A stretch of 64,000 bases of DNA from a phage, in sequence record PZ496581.1; one strand, written 5' to 3'. How positions within the stretch are numbered: the first letter of the stretch is position 1; each line of letters opens with the position of its first letter. The notes under the pieces are model-generated. The model saw only the letters and a list, made by a program, of their open reading frames with translations, was not told the DNA's origin and did not search any database. A program made the translations under genes and the position numbers. Below, in pieces: positions 26,896 through 57,000 of this stretch.

Positions 26896-27189
26896 TTATT
26901 TACGGAATGAAAGGAATGCTGGTGCTCGGAATGGAGTATCATCTTTAGAGTATTTAACTAATACGACCATTGGTACCTCTGTTTCTAAATGACCTGTCAC
27001 TACACCGATAAAAATTTGATCAGTGTGCTCAGGGTCACGAAAGTTTTTAAGAGGTTCCATAGCAATATGGAATGCACCTGGGAATACTCGATTCAATTCG
27101 TCAATCACAGCTTCGTTAAAAACATCATCCGCTGGGATAGCATCTTCAACTACTAGTTCTTGACCATTAAAGCGAAGCATAGATTTCAT
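26896..27189 (-). CDS. Hypothetical protein (alt.-1-like position)
   Basis: 97 aa from ATG 27189 with SD GAGGAA; early-promoter cassette upstream. Confidence 0.6.
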   Translation of the reverse strand: MKSMLRFNGQELVVEDAIPADDVFNEAVIDELNRVFPGAFHIAMEPLKNFRDPEHTDQIFIGVVTGHLETEVPMVVLVKYSKDDTPFRAPAFLSFRK

Positions 27190-27214
27190 AACGTTTTCCT
27201 CATGTTGTTTATGG

Positions 27215-27249
27215 GATGATAGTATCACACATCCATGTGTTTGTAAACT
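27215..27249 (-). promoter_or_regulatory. Early promoter cassette (GTTTAC-N18-TACTAT)
   Basis: Minus-strand GTTTAC (27243-27248) and TACTAT (27219-27224) with conserved leader ..CATCAAACAACATGAGGAAAAC. Confidence 0.65.
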
Positions 27250-29335
27250 ATCCTTGGATAAATTTAAACGGAACTGATTCTAAATCCATTAAAGATGCTA
27301 ACAATTTCAAACCTTTAGGTGCACTAGTTTTTTCTACAAATGAGGAGAACGATACCGGCTCATCTGATTCGATTTCACCCGTCATAGCAACCACCTCGCC
27401 TGTTTCCATGAGAACATCACCATCATAAATGACAGCTTCGTCCAACTGGTCCGAGGACATGACTTCAGCTTGAATAAATTTAAGGTTGGATTCTAAACCT
27501 GCACCAGTGTCAGATGACGCATCTGTAATTTTATTTATCTGCAAGAGAATGCCTCTAGGCAAAATAATTTCTTGCTCATTAGGGTGATTACTCAACTGTC
27601 CTGGATAAATCACGTTAACTTTATGGGCGCCATCAATAGCCCATCCAACGTTAACACGGATTTGTTCTGGCGCATGCATAGCTGTTCTTACTTGACTAGG
27701 AGAAATGGTAACACCTTCGTCATTATTGTCAATGTTAAGCTCTTTGCGAACTTCTTCAGGAGCAAGTCCAAGGGCAACGTTCTCTTTAAACCCACCGAAA
27801 ATAATAGGAGCTAGTGAAGTGGAAACATAGTTTCTGAAGTAGAATACCTTATTTTTAACCATTGCTTCGTAAATAGGCATTCTGATAGACTGAGCTCTAT
27901 ATAACGTTAGTCCTTCAGGTAAACGGTCTCCATTTAAAAACGCCGAATCAAGACCATCAATAGCGCGTTTAACTTCATCTTCATCTGCAACATCGTAAAA
28001 ATCTGGTTTATAACGACCTAACAACATATTATTGATATCGGTATACGCAGAAGAGGCATATTCGCGAATAGCTCGTTTTTCAGCAACAGAGTATTGTTTA
28101 GGGTCCCGATTCATTGTTATATTAAAGGTGCCTCTAGCCGATTCTCGTGCATAAGTATACATCACATTAGACAAGAACGCTGATTTACGTTGTTTCCAAG
28201 TTTTTTCAGATACTTCAGCTAAAACATCGTCGGCCAGTTGGAAATTATCACGTCTAAAATCTTCAAACCATTCGTCTTTAATAGAGTCCGCAATTTCGTT
28301 TGCAGCTTCAACAAAAGCAGCTAATGCTTTAACAGATGTTGTTTTTTCAGTTTTAATTTTCTTAGCAAACTTTTCTAAAGTTGGCTTAATAACACTACCA
28401 TAAGAAACTTCATCAGCAAATCTAAAGGATTCATCAATACGATTATAAATCTTATTTTCGATATCAGCAACTAAAGTGCCTTTTGCTGTGGATGATGCTT
28501 GGGCTAGTACGATTTCATATGCTTCAGGAAGTAATTCGGCTGTAGCCGGGCCACTAACTTCTTTAGCAGAATTTTCGTATTTCTGGAATAACTCACCTTC
28601 TTGGCGGTCAGCTTCTAAAGATTGGCTTGCGGCAATAGCACGACGAGAAATTTTAGTACGAGCAATAACAGGCTTATCTTTACGTTTTTCTTCTACAGCA
28701 GCAATAGAACCAGCGATAGCCGTTTCTTTGGTGACTTTTTCGCCGGTCTTTTTACTCACATAAACTTCGCCAACATCAGAATCTACTTTCGTGTACAACT
28801 CTGTGTTAATGTTAGGGATGCCTTTAATATCTTCAATGTTGGCATTTTTACGAACCATCATCACATAGGTGTGTTTACCTGTGAATTGATACATTGCCGA
28901 CAATACTTTAAAACGACCACCGGTTTTAGTAGAAACTAAACGAGCAAGAAGAGTTTGAAGCTGTTGTCCACGTCCTTTCAATTTCTTGGTAGGGAATCGG
29001 AACAGAACTGCATCCATACGAAGAGCTTTAACTTGTTCATATACTGTATTGAAAATGGTGTTGATTGCATCAATAGGAGCAGGACCAAGGCCATTTTTCA
29101 ATTCAGCGAGATTACCCTTTTCAGACAGACTCATAATAACAACATGAGCGTATTTGTCGCCAAGTTTAACTTGTTTTACAGCGTCGCCTTCGGAAAGGTA
29201 AGAGAATAAACGAACTACAATATTTGTATCGATATCACCAATTTTCCAGACTTGTGGAACTTTAGCTTTAGGGTTCAAATTGACGACAGGAAGACTGCCT
29301 TCAGATTCAAACACTTCATTTAATTGTTCAGACAT
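27248..29335 (-). CDS. alt: Alt, virion-packaged ADP-ribosyltransferase
   Basis: 695 aa ORF aligning along its length to T4 Alt (..ISRRAIA.SQSLE.., ..LYRSQ..PIYEAMVKN.VFYFRNFVSTSL.., ..ITDAS.., C-terminal ..FVQG). Confidence 0.93.
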   Translation of the reverse strand: MSEQLNEVFESEGSLPVVNLNPKAKVPQVWKIGDIDTNIVVRLFSYLSEGDAVKQVKLGDKYAHVVIMSLSEKGNLAELKNGLGPAPIDAINTIFNTVYEQVKALRMDAVLFRFPTKKLKGRGQQLQTLLARLVSTKTGGRFKVLSAMYQFTGKHTYVMMVRKNANIEDIKGIPNINTELYTKVDSDVGEVYVSKKTGEKVTKETAIAGSIAAVEEKRKDKPVIARTKISRRAIAASQSLEADRQEGELFQKYENSAKEVSGPATAELLPEAYEIVLAQASSTAKGTLVADIENKIYNRIDESFRFADEVSYGSVIKPTLEKFAKKIKTEKTTSVKALAAFVEAANEIADSIKDEWFEDFRRDNFQLADDVLAEVSEKTWKQRKSAFLSNVMYTYARESARGTFNITMNRDPKQYSVAEKRAIREYASSAYTDINNMLLGRYKPDFYDVADEDEVKRAIDGLDSAFLNGDRLPEGLTLYRAQSIRMPIYEAMVKNKVFYFRNYVSTSLAPIIFGGFKENVALGLAPEEVRKELNIDNNDEGVTISPSQVRTAMHAPEQIRVNVGWAIDGAHKVNVIYPGQLSNHPNEQEIILPRGILLQINKITDASSDTGAGLESNLKFIQAEVMSSDQLDEAVIYDGDVLMETGEVVAMTGEIESDEPVSFSSFVEKTSAPKGLKLLASLMDLESVPFKFIQG

Positions 29336-34095: not shown

Positions 34096-34134
34096 TTTAT
34101 TCTCCAGATGTTTAAGTTGTTTGTTGGTACAGGT

Positions 34135-34166
34135 CTATAATAACATAACCTGTACCAAAGTAAACT
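34135..34166 (-). promoter_or_regulatory. Early promoter cassette (GTTTAC-N17-TATTAT)
   Basis: Minus-strand GTTTAC (34160-34165) and TATTAT (34137-34142). Confidence 0.65.
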
Positions 34167-34169
34167 GTT

Positions 34170-34538
34170 TTATGCAACTTTAATCCAATTGTCTAAATTT
34201 AAAACACCTTTGGCTTTCATTTTTTCTATCAGGTTATCTGCTGTAATGCGTCCATTTTGATACCATGTAACATCTTCAGAGTAACCAGTTTCTTCGTCAA
34301 CATATGTTTCTGAACGAATTTTACCGGTAATAATAGTTTTTAATTCGTATGTGTCACCTGTGAAAAAGTTTGCTAACACAATTTTCCAAGAGAAATCATC
34401 AGAAGGACCTTCAGGGGTCATACAACCTACGAACTCAAATTGCTCTTTGTATAACATCCACTGGAATTCTTTAATTTCGATAGCTTTATAACCATCGTGG
34501 TCTTTACATTTGATGTATGAGTTCAGATTGATTTTCAT
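34170..34538 (-). CDS. Hypothetical protein (122 aa)
   Basis: ORF with its own early-promoter cassette; SD GGAGAA. Confidence 0.6.
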   Translation of the reverse strand: MKINLNSYIKCKDHDGYKAIEIKEFQWMLYKEQFEFVGCMTPEGPSDDFSWKIVLANFFTGDTYELKTIITGKIRSETYVDEETGYSEDVTWYQNGRITADNLIEKMKAKGVLNLDNWIKVA

Positions 34539-34579
34539 TTTGTTCTCCAGGTTGTTTTATTGATTAGATGGTACAAGTC

Positions 34580-34611
34580 TATAGTAACACATCCTACAGG
34601 AGAGTAAACAT
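34580..34611 (-). promoter_or_regulatory. Early promoter cassette (GTTTAC-N17-TACTAT)
   Basis: Minus-strand GTTTAC (34605-34610) and TACTAT (34582-34587). Confidence 0.65.
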
Positions 34612-34645
34612 CTTTTTAAACTTTTTCTGCCCTAAACGCACAAAA

Positions 34646-34663
34646 GGGAGACCGAAGTCTCCC
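34646..34663 (-). terminator. UUCG-tetraloop terminator (GGGAGAC-UUCG-GUCUCCC)
   Basis: Minus strand hairpin followed by UUUUG, 6 nt after the stop of the 59 aa ORF; identical 18-mer recurs at 50673-50690 and 59033-59050. Confidence 0.8.
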
Positions 34664-34668
34664 TAAAA

Positions 34669-34848
34669 TTATGCAACAACCTTTCCAAAACGAGAAGCAT
34701 CATCTCGAAGAACTGCACGTGCTCTGCGCATGATCTTCTCAACTGTTTGATTAATACGAGAGTTCGACCCACGCTTGTATCCAGCGCGTTTAGAGGTACC
34801 ATCAACTTTCTTTTCAACTGCTTTCTTTGCTTTAGCTTGTTTTGCCAT
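34669..34848 (-). CDS. Unlisted small basic protein (59 aa; 30.9-like position)
   Basis: MAKQAKAKKAVEKK..RAGYKRG.. Lys/Arg-rich ORF just under the 60 aa cutoff; followed directly by a strong terminator; overlaps a listed ORF in another frame (34632-34817) that has no such support. Confidence 0.55.
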   Translation of the reverse strand: MAKQAKAKKAVEKKVDGTSKRAGYKRGSNSRINQTVEKIMRRARAVLRDDASRFGKVVA

Positions 34849-35143
34849 TATAAATTCTCTTTAAATGAAAATGCAGGACTTATTGACATTGCCTGCGCAA
34901 GCCCTCAAGGGGAACATAGGTTTTGGATATTTAACGACAGGATAACCATAAACCCGTCATCATACCAACCACGACTTAGACAGATAACCTTTTTCTGACG
35001 CGTGATAGTACAAAATACATTCAAGAGGTACACCGTAAAACTGCCGGGGCCTTAAAACTATAATGATTCGCAAATCATTAATCAGACAGTTCGACGGCTC
35101 CTCGATTTTCTAGCCGCACTTAAGGTAGCGAATCACCTAAAAC

Positions 35144-35392
35144 TTATTTAAGGGTAATAACAAAATGACGTACTGCTTTACGAGCTGCAGAAGCCAAAGG
35201 CTTAGCATATTTCAGTTCATCTTTTGCTTCCAGTTCAGAGGCCAAAGCTGCCTGTACCGGGTTCAGATGTTTGAAATAATGCAGGATTTCCAGTGCTTCG
35301 GCTTCAACATCAATCGACGCGCCGTAGTTTTCGTGACCGTTATTCCATGCGTTTCGTTGCAGTTCAAGAGCGTGTTGTAATTGTTTAATCAT
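35144..35392 (-). CDS. rIII: rIII lysis inhibition accessory protein
   Basis: 82 aa ORF; T4 RIII is 82 aa; position immediately downstream of gene 31. Confidence 0.85.
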   Translation of the reverse strand: MIKQLQHALELQRNAWNNGHENYGASIDVEAEALEILHYFKHLNPVQAALASELEAKDELKYAKPLASAARKAVRHFVITLK

Positions 35393-35508
35393 TTTAAATT
35401 CTCAATTCGAGATAATATTTAGTAGCCACGTTCGTCTGAATTTCACCTTCTTTCGACAAGTCTCTCAGTTGTAGGCTACCGCTTAGAAGAGTGTTCTCTT
35501 CATATAGT

Positions 35509-35516
35509 TATTTATA
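35509..35516 (-). promoter_or_regulatory. Late promoter (minus-strand TATAAATA) upstream of rIII
   Basis: + strand tatttata between gene 31 stop and rIII start. Confidence 0.6.
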
Positions 35517-35849
35517 TCACTTATAAAGACACGGAATAGCTTTATAGTGGCATGTTACGAATTTCTGTTTAATTTCTTTAGGTTGTTTAAGTCCCAAAGC
35601 CACAAATGGATGTGGAACATTTCGAATTTGTCCAACTGGTAGTGGAGTCAAATCACCGACTTCAACAAAACCTTCAGGAACATCAGGACCTACAGAATGA
35701 ACTACACATAGTTCAGGAACTTCACCTTGAACACGTTTACCAATCACAAGTCCTGATTCGGTAACTTCTTCATCACCTGCTTGAGCGGGTTCAGAAACCA
35801 GAATGACATATTCACCAACAGCACGAATTGGGAGTTGTACTTCAGACAT
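35517..35849 (-). CDS. 31: Co-chaperonin gp31 (GroES analogue)
   Basis: 110 aa ORF near-identical to T4 gp31 ([60 protein letters not shown]..). Confidence 0.96.
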
Positions 35850-36215: not shown

Positions 36216-36786
36216 AAAAGTTTCGAATTTGTTCCCAATTCAGAGAACGAAGATTATTACGAGAGTACTGAATTACTTCAATACCGGCTTGTTTTAGAAT
36301 GTCTGCCCAATTTTCAGGAGATCGGTCATATAATTCTGCATATACAACCTTTTTAATACCTGACTGTGTAATAGCTTTAGTGCAATCAGGGCACGGAGAA
36401 AGCGTAGTATATAACGTAGCACCTTCAATAGAATTACCTTTACGAGCTGCAAACAAAATTGCATTCAATTCAGCATGGATTTCGTTATTAGCAGACCATG
36501 CACTATGAGCGGCCCGATGTTCTTTAGCCAAAACAAAATTATCCACCCGTCCAAATGCTGTAGTGCCTTCTTTATGCCCAGCAACGATGTCCGGGCTTGG
36601 TTTATTCTTCAACCAACCGTTTTCGGATGCATGTTCGCAACAGTTTGTACCACCGGCCGGGCTACCGTTATACCCAGTAGAAATAATGCGCCCATCTTTT
36701 TCAATGACGGCACCAACTTTCCATGAACAACATTTTGATTCTTGAGAAATCAGATATGCAATCTGAAGGTATGTGCTAGCTTTCAT
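36205..36786 (-). CDS. cd: dCMP deaminase
   Basis: 193 aa ORF with zinc-binding deaminase motifs HAELNAI and SPCPDC; T4 Cd is 193 aa. Confidence 0.95.
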   Translation of the reverse strand: MKASTYLQIAYLISQESKCCSWKVGAVIEKDGRIISTGYNGSPAGGTNCCEHASENGWLKNKPSPDIVAGHKEGTTAFGRVDNFVLAKEHRAAHSAWSANNEIHAELNAILFAARKGNSIEGATLYTTLSPCPDCTKAITQSGIKKVVYAELYDRSPENWADILKQAGIEVIQYSRNNLRSLNWEQIRNFCGE

Positions 36787-37778
36787 TATTGAACCTTATT
36801 AATATGAGTTAACAGCTCTTTAGTTTGTTCCCAACTGATGCACGCATCGGTAACGGAAACGCCATAGGACATATTATCAGAAATTTTTTGATTTCCTTCA
36901 TGTAGGAATGATTCTATCATAATTCCTTTGACCAAATCATTAGCTGCTAAATTTTTACCAATACCAATTTGATTGCTATAATGCCCATCAGCGTTTGCAT
37001 GGCTACAGTCAACCATTACATAATGATTCAGACCTACTGCCCTTGCTTTGTTAGAAGCTTCTTGAATATCAGAAGAATGATAGTTCGGGCCGTTGGTCCC
37101 GCCACGCAATACGATATGCGTATTCTGATTACCTTCAGCTTCAACAATGCCTACAGTACCATCGACGTCCATACCCATATACCGATGAGGCCAGGCGGCA
37201 CTATACATCGCGTCTGTAGCTACTTTAATAGAACCATTGGTTGCGTTCTTGAAGCCTACGCACATCGGTAGACCTGAAGCAATTTCACGATGTGTCTGAC
37301 TTTCAGTCGTACGGGCGCCAATAGCAACCCATGAGAAAATACCAGAAAGATACTTAATCGTGAATGGGTCTAATACTTCAGTTGCTAATGGAAGTCCCAT
37401 ACGTAGAAGTTTACGACACAATGTTCGTGCAACTATAAGACCGTGGTTCATATCAAAACTTCCGTCAAGATATGGATCATTTACAAGACCTTTCCAACCT
37501 ACGGTAGTTCGAGGCTTTTCAAAATAAACGCGCATCACTAACAGAACATTAGGAAGACGAGTTTGAAGTTCAGCCAAACGTTTGCCGTATTCAACAGCAG
37601 CAATAGGGTCATGAATTGAACAAGGACCTACAACAATAAGTTTGCGTGGGTCTTCACCGTTCATAATCGAATTAACTTGTTCGCGATGAGAAGCCACTTG
37701 TGATGCGTAAGCTTCCGACAAAGGAATAATCTCAGCCAGTTCTTTTGGAGAAATAAGTTTTCCGACGACAGGTAACAT
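36786..37778 (-). CDS. 3-deoxy-7-phosphoheptulonate (DAHP) synthase, class I (AroG/AroF-like)
   Basis: 330 aa ORF alignable along its length to E. coli AroG: ..VVGPCSIHDP.., ..MRVYFEKPRTTVGWKGL.NDP.., ..AIGARTTESQTHRE.ASGL.., ..ILRGG.., ..IESFLHEGNQ..; SD AAGGA; stop overlaps the cd start (ATGA). Confidence 0.9.
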   Translation of the reverse strand: MLPVVGKLISPKELAEIIPLSEAYASQVASHREQVNSIMNGEDPRKLIVVGPCSIHDPIAAVEYGKRLAELQTRLPNVLLVMRVYFEKPRTTVGWKGLVNDPYLDGSFDMNHGLIVARTLCRKLLRMGLPLATEVLDPFTIKYLSGIFSWVAIGARTTESQTHREIASGLPMCVGFKNATNGSIKVATDAMYSAAWPHRYMGMDVDGTVGIVEAEGNQNTHIVLRGGTNGPNYHSSDIQEASNKARAVGLNHYVMVDCSHANADGHYSNQIGIGKNLAANDLVKGIMIESFLHEGNQKISDNMSYGVSVTDACISWEQTKELLTHINKVQ

Positions 37779-37898: not shown

Positions 37899-38135
37899 TT
37901 ATAGTGTTCCATATACTCGAGTTGCTTCAACTAAACCGTCACTGCCTAATTTAAGGCTAGTAATCTGGTCACCATCTTTAGGATTAACGATTATGAGAAA
38001 AGAACGTGGAGATTCTTGAATAACTCGTAATGTTGCATCCTGGAAACGTTCAGACACTTTATTGATGAGTGCTTGAGCAAATTCTTTTACTTTAATCTGA
38101 AATTCGTGTACTGTAATTGGGTTTTCACTTAGCAT
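37899..38135 (-). CDS. Hypothetical protein (cd.x-like)
   Basis: 78 aa ORF with early-promoter cassette and SD GAGGAAAT. Confidence 0.55.
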   Translation of the reverse strand: MLSENPITVHEFQIKVKEFAQALINKVSERFQDATLRVIQESPRSFLIIVNPKDGDQITSLKLGSDGLVEATRVYGTL

Positions 38136-38162
38136 TTCGATTTCCTCATTGTGTTGGTAGAG

Positions 38163-38195
38163 TCATAGTATCACAACTCTACCATGTTGTAAACC
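38163..38195 (-). promoter_or_regulatory. Early promoter cassette (GTTTAC-N18-TACTAT)
   Basis: Minus-strand GTTTAC (38189-38194) and TACTAT (38165-38170). Confidence 0.65.
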
Positions 38196-38196
38196 A

Positions 38197-38472
38197 TTAA
38201 ATTGCTTTGCATTCAATTTTTTGTGTACCGAAATTGATATCACATTGGATAACTAAATCGCCGTCAAGATCAAATACCACGATGACGTGTGCAGACCCAG
38301 GGAGAAGAGTAATAGCAATAGAATCTACTTGGTCTGGGAGCAAAGCATTGAGTACATGAGTTACTTGAGCATGAACTCTGAGTTCGGCTGCATTATCAAG
38401 CACTTCAAACATATTATTAGCAATAATCTGACTGAAGACTACCTTTACAATTTCAGAATAAGTTGGGAACAT
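38197..38472 (-). CDS. Hypothetical protein (91 aa)
   Basis: ATG 38472 with SD GAGG; the listed ORF start at 38532 overlaps the upstream gene. Confidence 0.55.
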   Translation of the reverse strand: MFPTYSEIVKVVFSQIIANNMFEVLDNAAELRVHAQVTHVLNALLPDQVDSIAITLLPGSAHVIVVFDLDGDLVIQCDINFGTQKIECKAI

Positions 38473-41178: not shown

Positions 41179-41666
41179 GTTTTAATAATCTCAATGATTT
41201 CATCTCGGGATAATCCATTGATAAGAACGGTTTTCAAACCATCACACTGGATTTTGTACGATTCAAACAATACACACAACTCTTCTGCTGTATGATACGG
41301 ACTTGAAATTCCGAGGCGGTTGAATTTGTCGGTAAGAGGGTCGCAAATAATGTAGAATTTTATACCTGCGATATGTACGTTTGGTTGACTAATATTAATG
41401 AACACATTAGCGTCATATTTAGTCAAATTGTTTTGAAGAAATTCTACCATGGCATTAACTGCTTCCGGCATCGCTTCGCGTTTCTCTTCAGCGTATCGGG
41501 TGGAATACTCTTTTTGTTTTACTTTCTTTTTAAGATTTTTGGCCAGTGTAACACGTAGGTCAGTAAGATAACCAACTGGACGTCCCTTCTTAAAGACCCG
41601 GATTCCGTCAGTTGTGTCTCCAAAAGCGGTTACGACCATATCGTTAGTAATCAATTGCATATTCAT
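41166..41666 (-). CDS. alc: Alc-like protein (inhibitor of host transcription on cytosine DNA)
   Basis: 166 aa from ATG 41666 (SD GAGGAG); size and position between the pseT cluster and rnlA match T4 alc; no sequence recall to confirm. Confidence 0.6.
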   Translation of the reverse strand: MNMQLITNDMVVTAFGDTTDGIRVFKKGRPVGYLTDLRVTLAKNLKKKVKQKEYSTRYAEEKREAMPEAVNAMVEFLQNNLTKYDANVFINISQPNVHIAGIKFYIICDPLTDKFNRLGISSPYHTAEELCVLFESYKIQCDGLKTVLINGLSRDEIIEIIKTCLK

Positions 41667-41694
41667 AATTTTCTCCTCGTGTTGTTGATAAAAG

Positions 41695-41727
41695 CCATAG
41701 TAACACCATCCTTGGTGTTTGTAAACC
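41695..41727 (-). promoter_or_regulatory. Early promoter cassette (GTTTAC-N18-TACTAT)
   Basis: Minus-strand GTTTAC (41721-41726) and TACTAT (41697-41702) with conserved leader ..TATCAACAACACGAGGAGAA. Confidence 0.65.
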
Positions 41728-41728
41728 A

Positions 41729-42862
<1,134 letters not shown>

Positions 42863-50192: not shown

Positions 50193-50583
50193 ACTTTTTA
50201 AAAGTTTTTTGCAAAAGTTTGATGATTTCGTCGACGTTGGTTTCATCTACGATACAATGTATTTTTGTTACACCTAAAGTTATACCTTCGTTAGTAGGTT
50301 GAGGCTTTACTAAATCTACCTCAGTAAAGTATTTGAACTCGTCAGGATAAATCTCAAAATAAGTTTCAATTTCACCACCGGCAGAACATACAGTACCATC
50401 TTCCATAGTTACACTTACTACGTTTGATGTATCGCTATCATAATCAGGTTCCATTCCGTTTACAACAAAACTGGGCCCATGGAGTTCAATCAATTTTAAC
50501 ATCTTAGCGTTATTGTGTGGTGCTTCTTGAACAAAGTCATCTTTAAATAAAGGGTTAATGATATAAGATTTTCCGATTTCCAT
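50191..50583 (-). CDS. Hypothetical protein (130 aa)
   Basis: ORF with early-promoter cassette and SD GAGGAAAT. Confidence 0.6.
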   Translation of the reverse strand: MEIGKSYIINPLFKDDFVQEAPHNNAKMLKLIELHGPSFVVNGMEPDYDSDTSNVVSVTMEDGTVCSAGGEIETYFEIYPDEFKYFTEVDLVKPQPTNEGITLGVTKIHCIVDETNVDEIIKLLQKTFKK

Positions 50584-50610
50584 TTTGATTTCCTCATGTT
50601 GTTGATAGGT

Positions 50611-50642
50611 CTATACTAACACATCCAGGGAAGAAGTAAACA
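50611..50642 (-). promoter_or_regulatory. Early promoter cassette (GTTTAC-N17-TAGTAT)
   Basis: Minus-strand GTTTAC (50636-50641) and TAGTAT (50613-50618) with conserved leader ..AGACCTATCAACAACATGAGGAAATC. Confidence 0.65.
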
Positions 50643-54015: not shown

Positions 54016-57000
54016 ATGGCCGACATCAAACGTAAGTTCAGAGCCGAAGACGGTCTGGACGCCGGTGGCGACAAGATTGTTAACGTAGCATTAGCCGACC
54101 GTACAGTAGGTACTGATGGCGTAAACGTTGACTTCCTGGTACAAGAAAACACCGTTCAAGTATATGATTCTACGCGTGGATATAACAAAGGATTTGTTGT
54201 TCTTTATGACAACCGTTTATATCAAGCAATAAATGATATCGTGTCTCCTTCCGGGGCATTTAACCTTTTACAATGGCGTGCAGTTCGTACCGATGCACAA
54301 TGGATAACTGTCGCTTCTGGGACTTATCAACTTTCTTCAGGTGAATCGATTTCGGTTAACACTGGTGCCGGCAATGATATGGTTTTCACATTGCCAAATA
54401 CTCCGGTTGATGGTGATACTGTTGTTTTGGCTGATATTGGTGGAAGAACCGGGACAGTTAAAGTACAGATTAACGCGTCTGTGCAGAGTATTTTAAACTT
54501 TAGAGGTGAACAAGTTCGTACAGTTTTAATGACGCGCCCACGTTCACAACTATTGTTTGTGTTTAGTAATCGTTTGTGGCAGATGTATATTACCGATTAT
54601 GGTAAAGAATCAATCACTGTTACACCTGCGACACCATATCAAGCACAAGCAAATGATTTTATCGTTCGTCGTTTTACTAGTGCAGCACCAATCAACATTA
54701 CACTTCCACGTAATGCTAATAATGGTGATATAATCCACCTAGTTGATTTAGATAAATTAAACCCACTGTATCATACAATTGTTAAAACATTTGATGATAC
54801 AACGTCTATTGGTGAAGTCGGGACTCATATTGCCGAAGGCAGAAATGACTCTGACGCGTTTTTTGTTTTTGATGCTGCAAATAGTTTATGGCGTATATGG
54901 GAAGGCGACCAGAAATCGCGTCTTCGTATTATCCGTGCGGATTCAAATATTCGTCCAAATGAAGAAGTTCTTATTTTTGGCACAAATAACGCTACAACCG
55001 GAACTATTAATCTTACGCTGCCTTCCGGAATTTTGAGTGGTGACAGTGTTAAAATTTCAATGAACTACATGCGTAAAGGCCAAACAGTAAAAATTAAAGC
55101 TGCCAAAGGTGATACAATTGCTTCTTCTGTTGCATTGCTTCAGTTCCCTAAACGTTCTGAATATCCACCTGATGCTCAATGGGTCTCTGTTACTGAACTA
55201 GAATTCAATGGCACTACTTCATATGTTCCTGTATTAGAATTAGCGTATATCGAAGACACCGTTGCTGGTACACGTTATTGGGTTGTGCAACAGAATGTCC
55301 CTACGGTAGAACGTGTTGATGCTGGAACTGATGCTACACGAGCTCGTTTAGGTGTTATTGCTCTTGCTACTCAAGCGCAAGCAAATGTTGATTTAGAGAA
55401 TACTCCAGCTAAAGAAGTGGCTATTACTCCTGAAACGTTGGCAAATCGTACAGCAACTGAAGCTCGACGTGGTATCGCTAAAATTGCTACAACAGCACAA
55501 GTTAACCAGAATTCCACAGCAGCATTTGTGGACGATACTATTGTTACGCCTAAAAAACTAAATGAGCGTACAGCAACTGAAACTCGTCGCGGTCTTGCTG
55601 AAATTGCTACTCAGACTGAAACCGATGCTGGTCTTGATGACACAACGATTATTACACCTAAGAAATTGCAGGCACGTCAGGGTTCTGAAACACTATCTGG
55701 TATAGTTAAATATGTATCAACTACTTCTGCTACTCCTGCTGAAACTCGTGGGGCTGCAGGCACTAACGTTTATAATAAAACCGTAAATAATTTAACTATT
55801 TCTCCTAAAGCCCTTGACCAATATAAAGCAACTTATGCTCAACAAGGTGCAGTAATTTTAGCTGTTGATAGTGAAGTAATTGCTGGACAATCTCAAGCAG
55901 GTTATTCTCATGCTGTAGTAACTCCTGAAACACTACATAAGAAAACTTCTACTGATGGACGTATTGGTTTAATTGAAATTGCTACGCAAGCAGAAACTAA
56001 TGCTGGGACTGATTATACACGTGCAGTAACGCCTAAGACGTTAAATGATAGGAAAGCTACGGAAGGATTATCCGGCATAGCCGAACTTGCTACGCAAGTT
56101 GAATTTGATACTGGAACTGATGATACTCGTATCTCGACTCCACTGAAAATTAAAACTCATTTTGATTCTTCTGACCGTACCAGTGTTAATTCTGATTCCG
56201 GACTTATTGAAGAAGGAACCTTGTGGAACCATTATACTCTTGATATTTCTAAAGCAAATGAAACACAACGTGGTACACTTCGCGTAGCGACCCAGGCAGA
56301 ATCTAATGCAGGAACTTTAGATGATGTTCTTATTACTCCTAAAAAGCTTTTAGGGACTAAGTCCACTGAAACGTCTGAAGGCGTAATTAAGGTTGCTACT
56401 CAGGCTGAAACTGTAACAGGAACTTCTGCTAATACTGCTGTATCTCCTAAGAATTTAAAATGGATTGTCCAGTCTGAACCAACATGGGCTGCTACTACAG
56501 CAATTCGTGGATTTGTTAAAACTTCATCTGGTTCAATTACATTCGTTGGTAATGATACAGTCGGTTCTACCCAAGATTTAGAACTGTACGAGAAAAATAG
56601 CTATGCGGTATCACCATATGAATTAAATCGCGTATTAGCAAATTATTTGCCATTGAAAGCTAAAGCCGTAGATAGTAATTTATTAGATGGACTAGATTCA
56701 TCTCAGTTCATTCGTAGGGACATTGCACAGACGGTTAATGGTTCACTAACCTTAACCCAACAAACGAATCTGAGTGCCCCTCTTGTATCATCTAGTACTG
56801 CTACGTTTGGTGGTTCAGTTTCGGCAAATAGTACATTAACTATTTCTAACTCTGGAACAGCAACTCGTCTGATTTTTGAAAAGGGACCTCAAACTGGAAC
56901 TAACCCAGCGCAGACGATGACTATCAGAGTTTGGGGAAATCAGTTTGGCGGCGGATCAGATACAACACGTTCTACTGTATTTGAAGTTGGAGATGAAACA

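Follow-up and report, generated by a model that had tools for sequence, protein, structure and literature searches.

We analyzed a 64,000-nucleotide (nt) stretch of phage DNA (sequence record PZ496581.1, hereafter the window) and focus here on the gap at positions 34849-35143, a conserved non-coding RNA region that begins with what is almost certainly a solitary unit of the RNA antitoxin ToxI. The window phage is of the T-even type, RB69-like and of the genus Mosigvirus; the 851 bases around the gap are 100% identical to those of the Escherichia phages vB_EcoM_G53, WFK and MM02. The gap extends for 295 nt from the rIII stop codon to the gp30.9 ATG, among closely packed genes that lie on the minus strand in the T4 order cd, 31.1, 31, rIII, gap, gp30.9; the map of open reading frames (ORFs) bears out its earlier description, in a first-pass annotation of the window, as a gap in a packed array. 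Upstream, rIII (35144-35392, minus strand) encodes the lysis inhibition accessory protein and belongs to the same transcription unit. Downstream, gp30.9 (34669-34848, minus strand) is a 59-amino-acid basic protein and the last gene ahead of the terminator; it has no Pfam family, no relative in the Protein Data Bank (PDB) and no solved structure, and its PHROG entry (1427) is given as function not known. Its ribosome-binding region, AAAGAGAAUUUAUA, occupies 34849-34862 directly ahead of the ATG. The unit ends in an intrinsic terminator hairpin, GGGAGAC-UUCG-GUCUCCC (34646-34663, minus strand), which is an annotated terminator in phages ATK47 and G53 and is followed by the early promoter for 30.8. 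The gap is on the same strand as both flanking genes, a promoter and terminator scan of 34400-35600 called no promoter-like or terminator-like site within it, and, read from the sequence, it lies inside one transcription unit that runs from rIII to 30.9.

The poor conservation and absence from close relatives that had been named beforehand as telling against a functional RNA were not encountered: 776 phage records, those of T4, T2 and T6 among them, have the gap between rIII and 30.9. Gap lengths are 194, 244 (T4), 263 (RB69), 295 (window) and about 395 nt, and in alignments of the transcribed strand conserved 5ˊ and 3ˊ blocks flank a variable center. The region is made up of small modules (A to G), whose order and combination vary when 38 additional T4-like loci from IMG/VR are compared. 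Module B is 98-99% identical to T4 and T6, module E 98-100%, module F 100% and module G 98%, as against 85% for rIII (about 65% at third codon positions) and 90% for 30.9. The proposal that the gap is a degraded remnant of an excised element is contradicted by these figures, because B, E and F are 98-100% identical between genera, and a conservation above that of the rIII third codon positions is the opposite of what a decaying remnant would be expected to display. The competing proposal of a structured non-coding RNA is upheld: modules A, B and E covary when folded against the homologous regions of related phages, the comparison recommended at the time, and the modules are conserved far beyond the synonymous sites of the flanking genes. 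The whole gap folds no more stably than shuffled sequences on either strand (z -0.55 and -0.98), and only individual modules are more stable than shuffles. Rfam, searched at permissive E-values with the region, a 131-nt slice and 14 related loci, gave nothing relevant, so that the recommended Rfam scan yielded no family fitting any module; a tRNA and tmRNA search found none in the window or in related gaps, and a repeat search found no further copies of the gap modules elsewhere in the 64-kb window. The gap is thus a conserved, modular, non-coding RNA region, and neither junk nor a decayed gene.

The statement that the gap holds no ORF longer than 18 codons is right for ATG starts and wrong for the alternative starts, since a GTG start opens a frame of 42 amino acids (34905-35033) and a TTG start one of 37 (34960-35073). 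It is extremely improbable that the gap encodes one or both as unannotated micro-proteins. Both ORFs are on the transcribed strand, and annotations exist for the 37-amino-acid ORF in G53 and for different small ORFs in PM105 and pEC-M719; however, parts of both are deleted in T4, 1-nt insertions or deletions (GACGGG vs GACGAGG, CCTGTC vs CCTGGTC) break the frame in close relatives, the 37-amino-acid ORF has no PHROG match, and substitutions keep base pairs rather than codons. We reject the small-ORF reading because the frames are not conserved.

The first 40 nt at the 5ˊ side of the gap, whose identity as ToxI was overlooked in the first-pass annotation, contain module A (35104-35142, minus strand), which reads UUUU-AGGUGAUUCGCUACCUUAAGUGCGGCUAGAAAA-UC. 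A BLAST search with a 42-nt module A query matched 74 plasmids at several places per record, and the matched places are tandem arrays of 36-37-nt units, followed by a terminator and then by a gene annotated as a ToxN/AbiQ family toxin. Pectobacterium atrosepticum pPA21A carries 13 tandem 37-nt units, a terminator and a type III ToxN/AbiQ family toxin gene; E. coli pU90-1 carries four ToxI units ahead of a ToxN/AbiQ-type gene; pECA1039, the plasmid that defined ToxIN, carries 5.5 copies of AGGTGATTTGCTACCTTTAAGTGCAGCTAGAAATTC ahead of toxN, whose product fits the PADLOC AbiQ model at 6e-50; and plasmids of E. coli cattle strains (pTA113-2 type) carry about five ToxI units of the same kind as pECA1039. 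Module A is the only part of the gap that matches E. coli DNA. Of 5426 complete E. coli genomes, 54 have ToxI-type arrays, nearly all of them plasmid-borne, and cognate toxIN plasmids are carried by hosts of the phage. From this match of sequence to the arrays upstream of toxN, module A is almost certainly a ToxI homolog, and we treat it as one ToxI-like RNA antitoxin unit, or pseudo-ToxI. In bacteria, ToxI is a 36-nt pseudoknot RNA that keeps the endoribonuclease ToxN inactive within ToxIN, which is both a type III toxin-antitoxin pair and an abortive-infection system.

The window unit (AGGTGATTCGCTACC-TTAAGTGCGGCTAGAAAATC) agrees with the pECA1039 repeat at 32 of 36 positions, and its first 25 nt are identical to the units of pPA21A and pU90-1. 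Relative to the pECA1039 ToxI it has the paired changes U9C and A25G, UU in place of UUU and an extra 3ˊ A; changes like these (groups 2, 3 and 5) leave single-repeat antitoxic activity unaffected and are also found in the pseudo-ToxI of phage PhiTE, whereas C27G or U28A abolishes antitoxic activity (PMC3475682). The window unit retains both of these ToxN-contact bases, C27 and U28, within GCUAG, as do pECA1039 and E. coli pTA113-2. All six pairs of the ToxI H-type pseudoknot (2-15/3-14/4-13 and 9-25/10-24/11-23) can form in it, pair 9-25 being named in PMC3475682 and the remaining five inferred from covariation. Across 17 phage and plasmid units, 96% of the pseudoknot cells are paired and three of the six pairs have compensatory changes; the covariation score is 0.324 against 0.199 for shuffles (none of 500 reaches it) and at most 0.125 for slid controls. 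The 3ˊ flank, GAAAAUC, matches the arrays of pPA21A and pU90-1. In the 5ˊ direction, the first AAAU is the one supplied by the last codons of rIII, AAA-UAA; it lies 9 nt upstream of the unit, as compared with 4 nt in the arrays.

At positions 26-30, which contact ToxN, two classes of natural ToxI array can be told apart. The GCUAG class includes pECA1039 (L084:869-1060) and E. coli pTA113-2, with L129:596-790 also compared; the GGACG class includes pPA21A (L082:1197-1672, 13 units) and E. coli pU90-1. Module A of the window falls within the GCUAG class, and the PhiTE pseudo-ToxI has G27 and A28, as in the GGACG class (PMC3475682).

Module A shares with the ToxI of ToxIN both pseudoknot stems, C27/U28 and the 3ˊ GAAAAU boundary of pPA21A and pU90-1. 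It differs in being one unit rather than 2 to 13 in tandem, and in lying inside the mRNA of a lytic phage, between rIII and a hairpin, with a UUUU 5ˊ tail and a displaced AAAU. It is single-copy in the window, which falls short of the tandem array of ToxI (about 1.9 repeats or more, with 1.9-5.6 as the range in the family), and no terminator and toxN were found directly after it, the place being taken by module B, other modules and then gp30.9, which has no toxin-type Pfam assignment or any other. The closest precedent is the pseudo-ToxI of Pectobacterium phage PhiTE (Blower et al. 2012, PMC3475682), which is likewise phage-borne and ToxI-like, has the same U9C/A25G pair, UUU to UU change and extra 3ˊ A, and may offer by analogy the same action, sequestration of ToxN. 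Wild-type PhiTE has 1.5 repeats that are out of phase and carry G27/A28, and its escape needs expansion of the locus or capture of ToxI (PMC3475682), whereas the window has one in-phase unit with C27/U28 in a T-even-type phage, amid other conserved RNA modules.

Solitary ToxI units are widespread in phages. A three-unit ToxI query matched 252 phage records, each with one unit of about 30-70 nt that is mostly unannotated; 162 are Klebsiella and 53 Escherichia phages, and Salmonella, Vibrio, Erwinia and Pectobacterium phages are also represented. The Klebsiella phage records, among the matches listed, are about 165-170 kb long, as T4-like genomes are. Salmonella phage SE131 has an exact ToxI unit with GAAAU on both sides and then a terminator. 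In the Erwinia T4-like phage IT22 (L127:401-443) the unit starts right after tRNA-Ser CCA (AUUC-AGGUGA...) and occupies the whole 42-nt spacer between tRNA-Ser and tRNA-Glu. Among T4-like gaps, module A is 100% identical between the window and a Gaprivervirus, 97% identical to a Dhakavirus and 61% identical to T4 and T6, and it is missing from RB69 and some Dhakaviruses. RB69 (L130:12344-12606), the type Mosigvirus, has a gap without a ToxI-like unit that begins GUAAAUCGAGG, and its sequence looks as if the unit had been removed between two AAAU motifs.

This distribution raises the question of whether past recombination of a T4-like phage with a toxIN plasmid left module A behind as a neutral scar, the gap being a hotspot that gathers functionless passenger fragments. 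The patchiness of module A (its absence from RB69 and several Dhakaviruses) and its 100% identity across genera, set against 61% to T4 and T6, accord with such an origin, the latter pointing to horizontal exchange; the center of the gap is an insertion and deletion hotspot, and PhiTE did capture ToxI through recombination (PMC3475682). A scar is nevertheless improbable, for the phage units preserve both ToxI stems through compensatory changes, complete single units are kept by independent phage lineages in differing contexts, and conservation in the neighboring modules exceeds that of coding sequence, the reverse of what neutral passenger DNA would show.

Module E (34915-34964, minus strand) is a second pseudoknot of the H type, assigned from covariation. 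Its stem P1 pairs 34953-34958 with 34936-34941 (GACGGG/CCUGUC), its loop at 34944-34949 (UA(U)GGUU) pairs with 34917-34922 (AACCUA), and the linker, GUUAAAUAUCCAAA, is A-rich. With 31 distinct sequences, covariation scores 0.345, compared with 0.158 in shuffles (none of 500 reaches it) and at most 0.184 for slid controls, and 53 cells are changed on both sides where 21.5 are expected. Two P1 pairs are never broken, 12-34 (UA in 18, AU in 12 and GC in one) and 13-33 (CG in 21, GC in seven and UA in three). Exchanging cognate for swapped partners lowers complementarity (P1 p ~6e-4, pseudoknot p ~2e-4; since the sequences are related to one another, neither value is a strict probability). A profile scan found module E in all but one of 53 T4-like loci. 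In an unrelated phage contig of 55 kb, the 58 nt that separate tRNA-Asp from tRNA-Pro consist entirely of module E (L068:6797-6854). This arrangement parallels that of the ToxI unit in IT22 and speaks for E, as well as A, being a stand-alone RNA; as both fill tRNA spacers, tRNA processing would release both as small RNAs.

In its architecture module E is reminiscent of TenpI and CptI, the antitoxins of other type III toxin-antitoxin families. TenpI repeats measure 39-57 nt, and in them stem 1 is accompanied by a covarying stem 2 and by a conserved A stretch positioned to make A-minor contacts (PMC12283969, PMC3401426); module E, at about 50 nt within that range, likewise has a stem 1, an A-rich stretch placed to contact it, a covarying stem 2 and an H-type pseudoknot, the likeness being one of architecture taken from the published description. 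It differs in having no tandem repeat, no adjoining toxin (TenpN/CptN) and no sequence match to the bacterial loci searched, and the Klebsiella plasmid cited for TenpI shows no recognizable TenpN or repeat. By this analogy module E might be an antitoxin mimic as well, which we regard as possible and rather less likely than otherwise. A separate observation concerns a G+C-rich viral contig (L080:3877-3993, also L177), in which 3.3 tandem copies of the 36-nt CGGCCGTTAAACACTGACGGTGGTTAATGGACGATC stand right after an ORF; the unit is loosely like module E, has no ToxN-like gene nearby and may be a chance pattern match.

Module E might alternatively process the transcript by cleaving itself, as a small ribozyme of the pistol type, or one related to it by permutation, would do. 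As in pistol, the loop of a P1 hairpin in the 5ˊ half of E pairs with sequence further downstream, the 7 nt that follow P1 as a linker (UUAAAUA) are identical to J1-2 of the env25 pistol ribozyme (PMC6101554), and module F stands after or before E in a manner resembling circular permutation. The Rfam Pistol model, on the other side, matched nothing at E-values up to 10, on 2 kb or on the 131-nt slice; neither P2, a correctly placed P3 nor the strictly 2-nt GU junction (criteria of PMC4604425) could be drawn by eye in the window or in L030; and A-rich linkers of this kind are also described in TenpI-type antitoxin pseudoknots. We reject the pistol assignment, and a ribozyme of this kind is very improbable. 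A leader peptide was rejected as well: the mini-ORF AUGAUG...UAA, of 10 codons in the window, is frame-shifted in VR5, L030 and T4.

Module B (35018-35106, minus strand; paired part 35025-35103) is a long conserved hairpin. The consensus fold of 18 variants has 24 pairs, five of them with compensatory changes; the minimum free energy is -25.4 kcal/mol (z -2.79), with none of 200 shuffles equally stable, and natural deletion variants retain the basal stem. Its tip is the apical hairpin UAAUGAUU-UGCG-AAUCAUUA (35061-35080, minus strand), which corresponds to the palindrome taatgatt-cgca-aatcatta reported from the first-pass reading, here with corrected coordinates. In relatives UAAUGAUU/AAUCAUUA is replaced by UAUCGAUU/AAUCGGUA in compensatory fashion, and two pairs are altered on both sides in Dhakavirus ABTNLsp5 (L010/L029). 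The other three sequence features pointed out in that reading are not conserved or lack covariation in relatives. The inverted repeat cggct..agccg (35095-35099/35112-35116) would pair part of hairpin B, at its base, with one half of the ToxI-like unit, at odds with the consensus fold; ccggggcc (35044-35051) is GACCCCGG in nearly all relatives; and the long-range complementarity gattcgc/gcgaatc does not covary, T4 having GATTCAC facing an unchanged GCGAATC. The alignments show B, E and F to be folded RNAs under stronger constraint than the flanking proteins, and the likeliest reading is that they may be further protein-binding decoys, or stabilizing or processing elements.

The remaining parts of the gap are smaller or more variable. 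Module D (34966-35017, minus strand; delimited from alignments) is a central spacer with a weak hairpin (fold z -0.44) whose identity to relatives ranges from 0 to 100%; its site is the insertion and deletion hotspot, at which relatives have nothing, this 50-nt piece or the 135-nt module C. Module F (34898-34915, minus strand) is a mini hairpin, GUUCCCC-UUGA-GGG-CUUG, which is single-copy in the window, identical throughout to T4 and T6, and present in nearly all relatives before or after E. Module G (34863-34896, minus strand) is a weak hairpin by sequence and fold, GCAGG and CCUGC around a 14-nt loop and then AUUUUCAUUU; it adjoins the gp30.9 ribosome-binding region on the upstream side, where relatives show other hairpins with a U-rich tail. 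With its 5-base-pair stem and 14-nt loop (the criterion being 3-8 nt) it fails as an intrinsic terminator. No bacterial counterpart of B, D, F or G was found in plasmids or E. coli genomes.

Module C, which is missing from the window and would sit at about 34966-35017, is an insert of about 135 nt in the gap between rIII and 30.9 of 404 phage records, where it is mostly unannotated. It occurs in phage VR5 (L020:1875-2030) and at the same place in L006, L009, L024, L026, L030, L032, L034-L036, L038-L041, L043-L047, L049 and L070. The RNA folds into several helices, one hairpin being capped by a GNRA loop, and has an unvarying block at its 3ˊ side, AAGCUAACGGUGUGCAACAGAUAAGAG; its consensus fold has 38 pairs, 16 with compensatory changes; it has no match to an Rfam family or in E. 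coli genomes. Its identification as T4 species-1 RNA (rnaC) is unsupported: module C has one copy per genome at this locus and is unannotated, and T4 is not among the matches listed. A likeness to CRISPR repeats was also dropped (diverged T4 module A to type I-F, module F to type I-E), as the hairpin and handle parts mismatch.

The modules next to gp30.9 bring up the possibility that the gap is mainly a cis-acting leader of 30.9, in which the folded modules and the G hairpin with its U-tract would control the amount of transcription or translation that gets to 30.9, as an attenuator, an RNase-protection element or a protein-binding operator, with the ToxI likeness incidental. All relatives have some hairpin with a U-rich tail, of varying sequence, directly ahead of the 30.9 ribosome-binding site; F and G are 98-100% conserved against T4 and T6; and the order of folded RNA, hairpin and small ORF is constant across T4-like genera. 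Several observations run counter to a leader. The module order shifts, and A, B, C and D come and go while 30.9 stays; A and E occur elsewhere without 30.9 downstream (in tRNA spacers and before a sigma-factor gene); the terminator scan does not call G, given its short stem and long loop; and no covarying alternative pairing was found. We consider a leader function unlikely as the main explanation, and it is compatible with the decoy function proposed below; for roughly the last 85 nt of the gap (F, G and the ribosome-binding region) a role as regulatory leader is possible.

We propose that the part of the rIII-to-30.9 transcript made from the gap is functional without coding for protein and is composed of independent folded RNA modules, of which the first probably mimics an antitoxin and decoys ToxN. 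The anti-ToxN part of this proposal is suggested by the sequence of module A, which may well act as such a decoy. When the phage shuts off host transcription, the unstable host ToxI would decay and ToxN would be freed; the phage transcript would then provide its own ToxI-like unit, which could be trimmed at the conserved 3ˊ GAAAAU and possibly also at the 5ˊ AAAU of the rIII stop region. The trimmed unit would occupy ToxN as the real antitoxin does, and phage mRNAs would survive. Inhibition of ToxN by a phage RNA of this type has been seen experimentally for the expanded pseudo-ToxI of PhiTE (PMC3475682).

Several points weigh against this proposal. Module A is a single unit and not an array, and the wild-type 1.5-repeat locus of PhiTE is inactive, so that escape needed expansion (PMC3475682). 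It has UUUU in place of AUUC as its 5ˊ tail, and upstream of it AAAU first occurs at a greater distance than in the arrays. T2, T4 and T6 are strongly blocked by plasmid-borne toxIN (PMC9391042) despite carrying the diverged unit, which indicates that the T4-type unit is not protective alone. RB69 is less sensitive to toxIN, and module A is ruled out as the cause because RB69 lacks it entirely. T-even phages already have a protein inhibitor of ToxN, TifA (PMC9391042). Searches of plasmids, E. coli genomes, GTDB genomes and metagenomes turned up no bacterial counterpart of module E: the GTDB pattern scan gave 41 matches, about the chance number estimated from the information content of the pattern and none with matching stems by eye, and the metagenome pattern scan gave only T4-like copies plus a few uncertain ones. 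The single unit with its altered tail, the blocked T-even phages, the absence of module A from RB69 and the presence of TifA together suggest that module A may act on particular ToxN variants or expression levels, or may add to TifA.

A wider and more tentative idea is that the region between rIII and 30.9 is an "RNA anti-defense island", a shuffling cassette array of solitary heterologous RNA decoys; we hold this to be possible rather than likely. Module A would then mimic ToxI, module E would mimic a TenpI/CptI-like antitoxin or another RNase-binding RNA, and B and C would aim at further host RNA-binding defense proteins, with the decoys freed by host or toxin nucleases from the mRNA or, in other phages, from tRNA arrays. 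The concept has a parallel in the RNA-based anti-CRISPRs, solitary CRISPR repeat units in phages that were reportedly described by Camara-Wilpert et al. in 2023. These are said to share the principle of a single host repeat unit that titrates the partner protein of a defense system, and as they involve another system and another RNA they serve as an analogy only.

Elsewhere in the window, an ORF of 330 amino acids adjoining cd (36786-37778, minus strand) is annotated in close relatives as a DAHP (3-deoxy-7-phosphoheptulonate) synthase of the AroG type, a gene of the aromatic amino-acid pathway in a lytic T4-like phage. Direct-repeat families at 27176-27251, 38122-38207, 41659-41739 and 50570-50623, as well as at 34106-34135 and 34550-34579, resemble T4-type minus-strand early promoters (GTTTAC ... 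TGTTACTAT, then a ribosome-binding site). Imperfect direct repeats of 44-48 nt (families D1, D2 and D10) lie at 55294-56411 within an apparent long coding region, which by its sequence looks like that of a repetitive structural protein.

T4 and its relatives are a standard model of phage-host conflict, and ToxIN is a model type III toxin-antitoxin defense. Work on T-even phages against ToxIN has centered on the protein TifA (PMC9391042), and neither a ToxI-like RNA in T-even phages nor a feature of the spacer between rIII and 30.9 is mentioned in the literature on ToxIN escape and T-even phages that we consulted, the coverage of which is incomplete (PMC3475682, PMC5449768, PMC9391042, PMC10853763, PMC13096335, PMC9409239, PMC9697503). 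By its sequence, module A appears to be a new natural example and an architectural variant of phage RNA antitoxin mimicry. If it is active, such mimicry would be a standing part of phage genomes, beyond the laboratory escape route known from PhiTE, and a reason would be given for one of the few long "empty" gaps in T4-type genomes. Activity of module A would also flag the ultra-conserved modules B and E, and module C in relatives, which have no Rfam match, as candidates for new RNA-protein interactions in infection.

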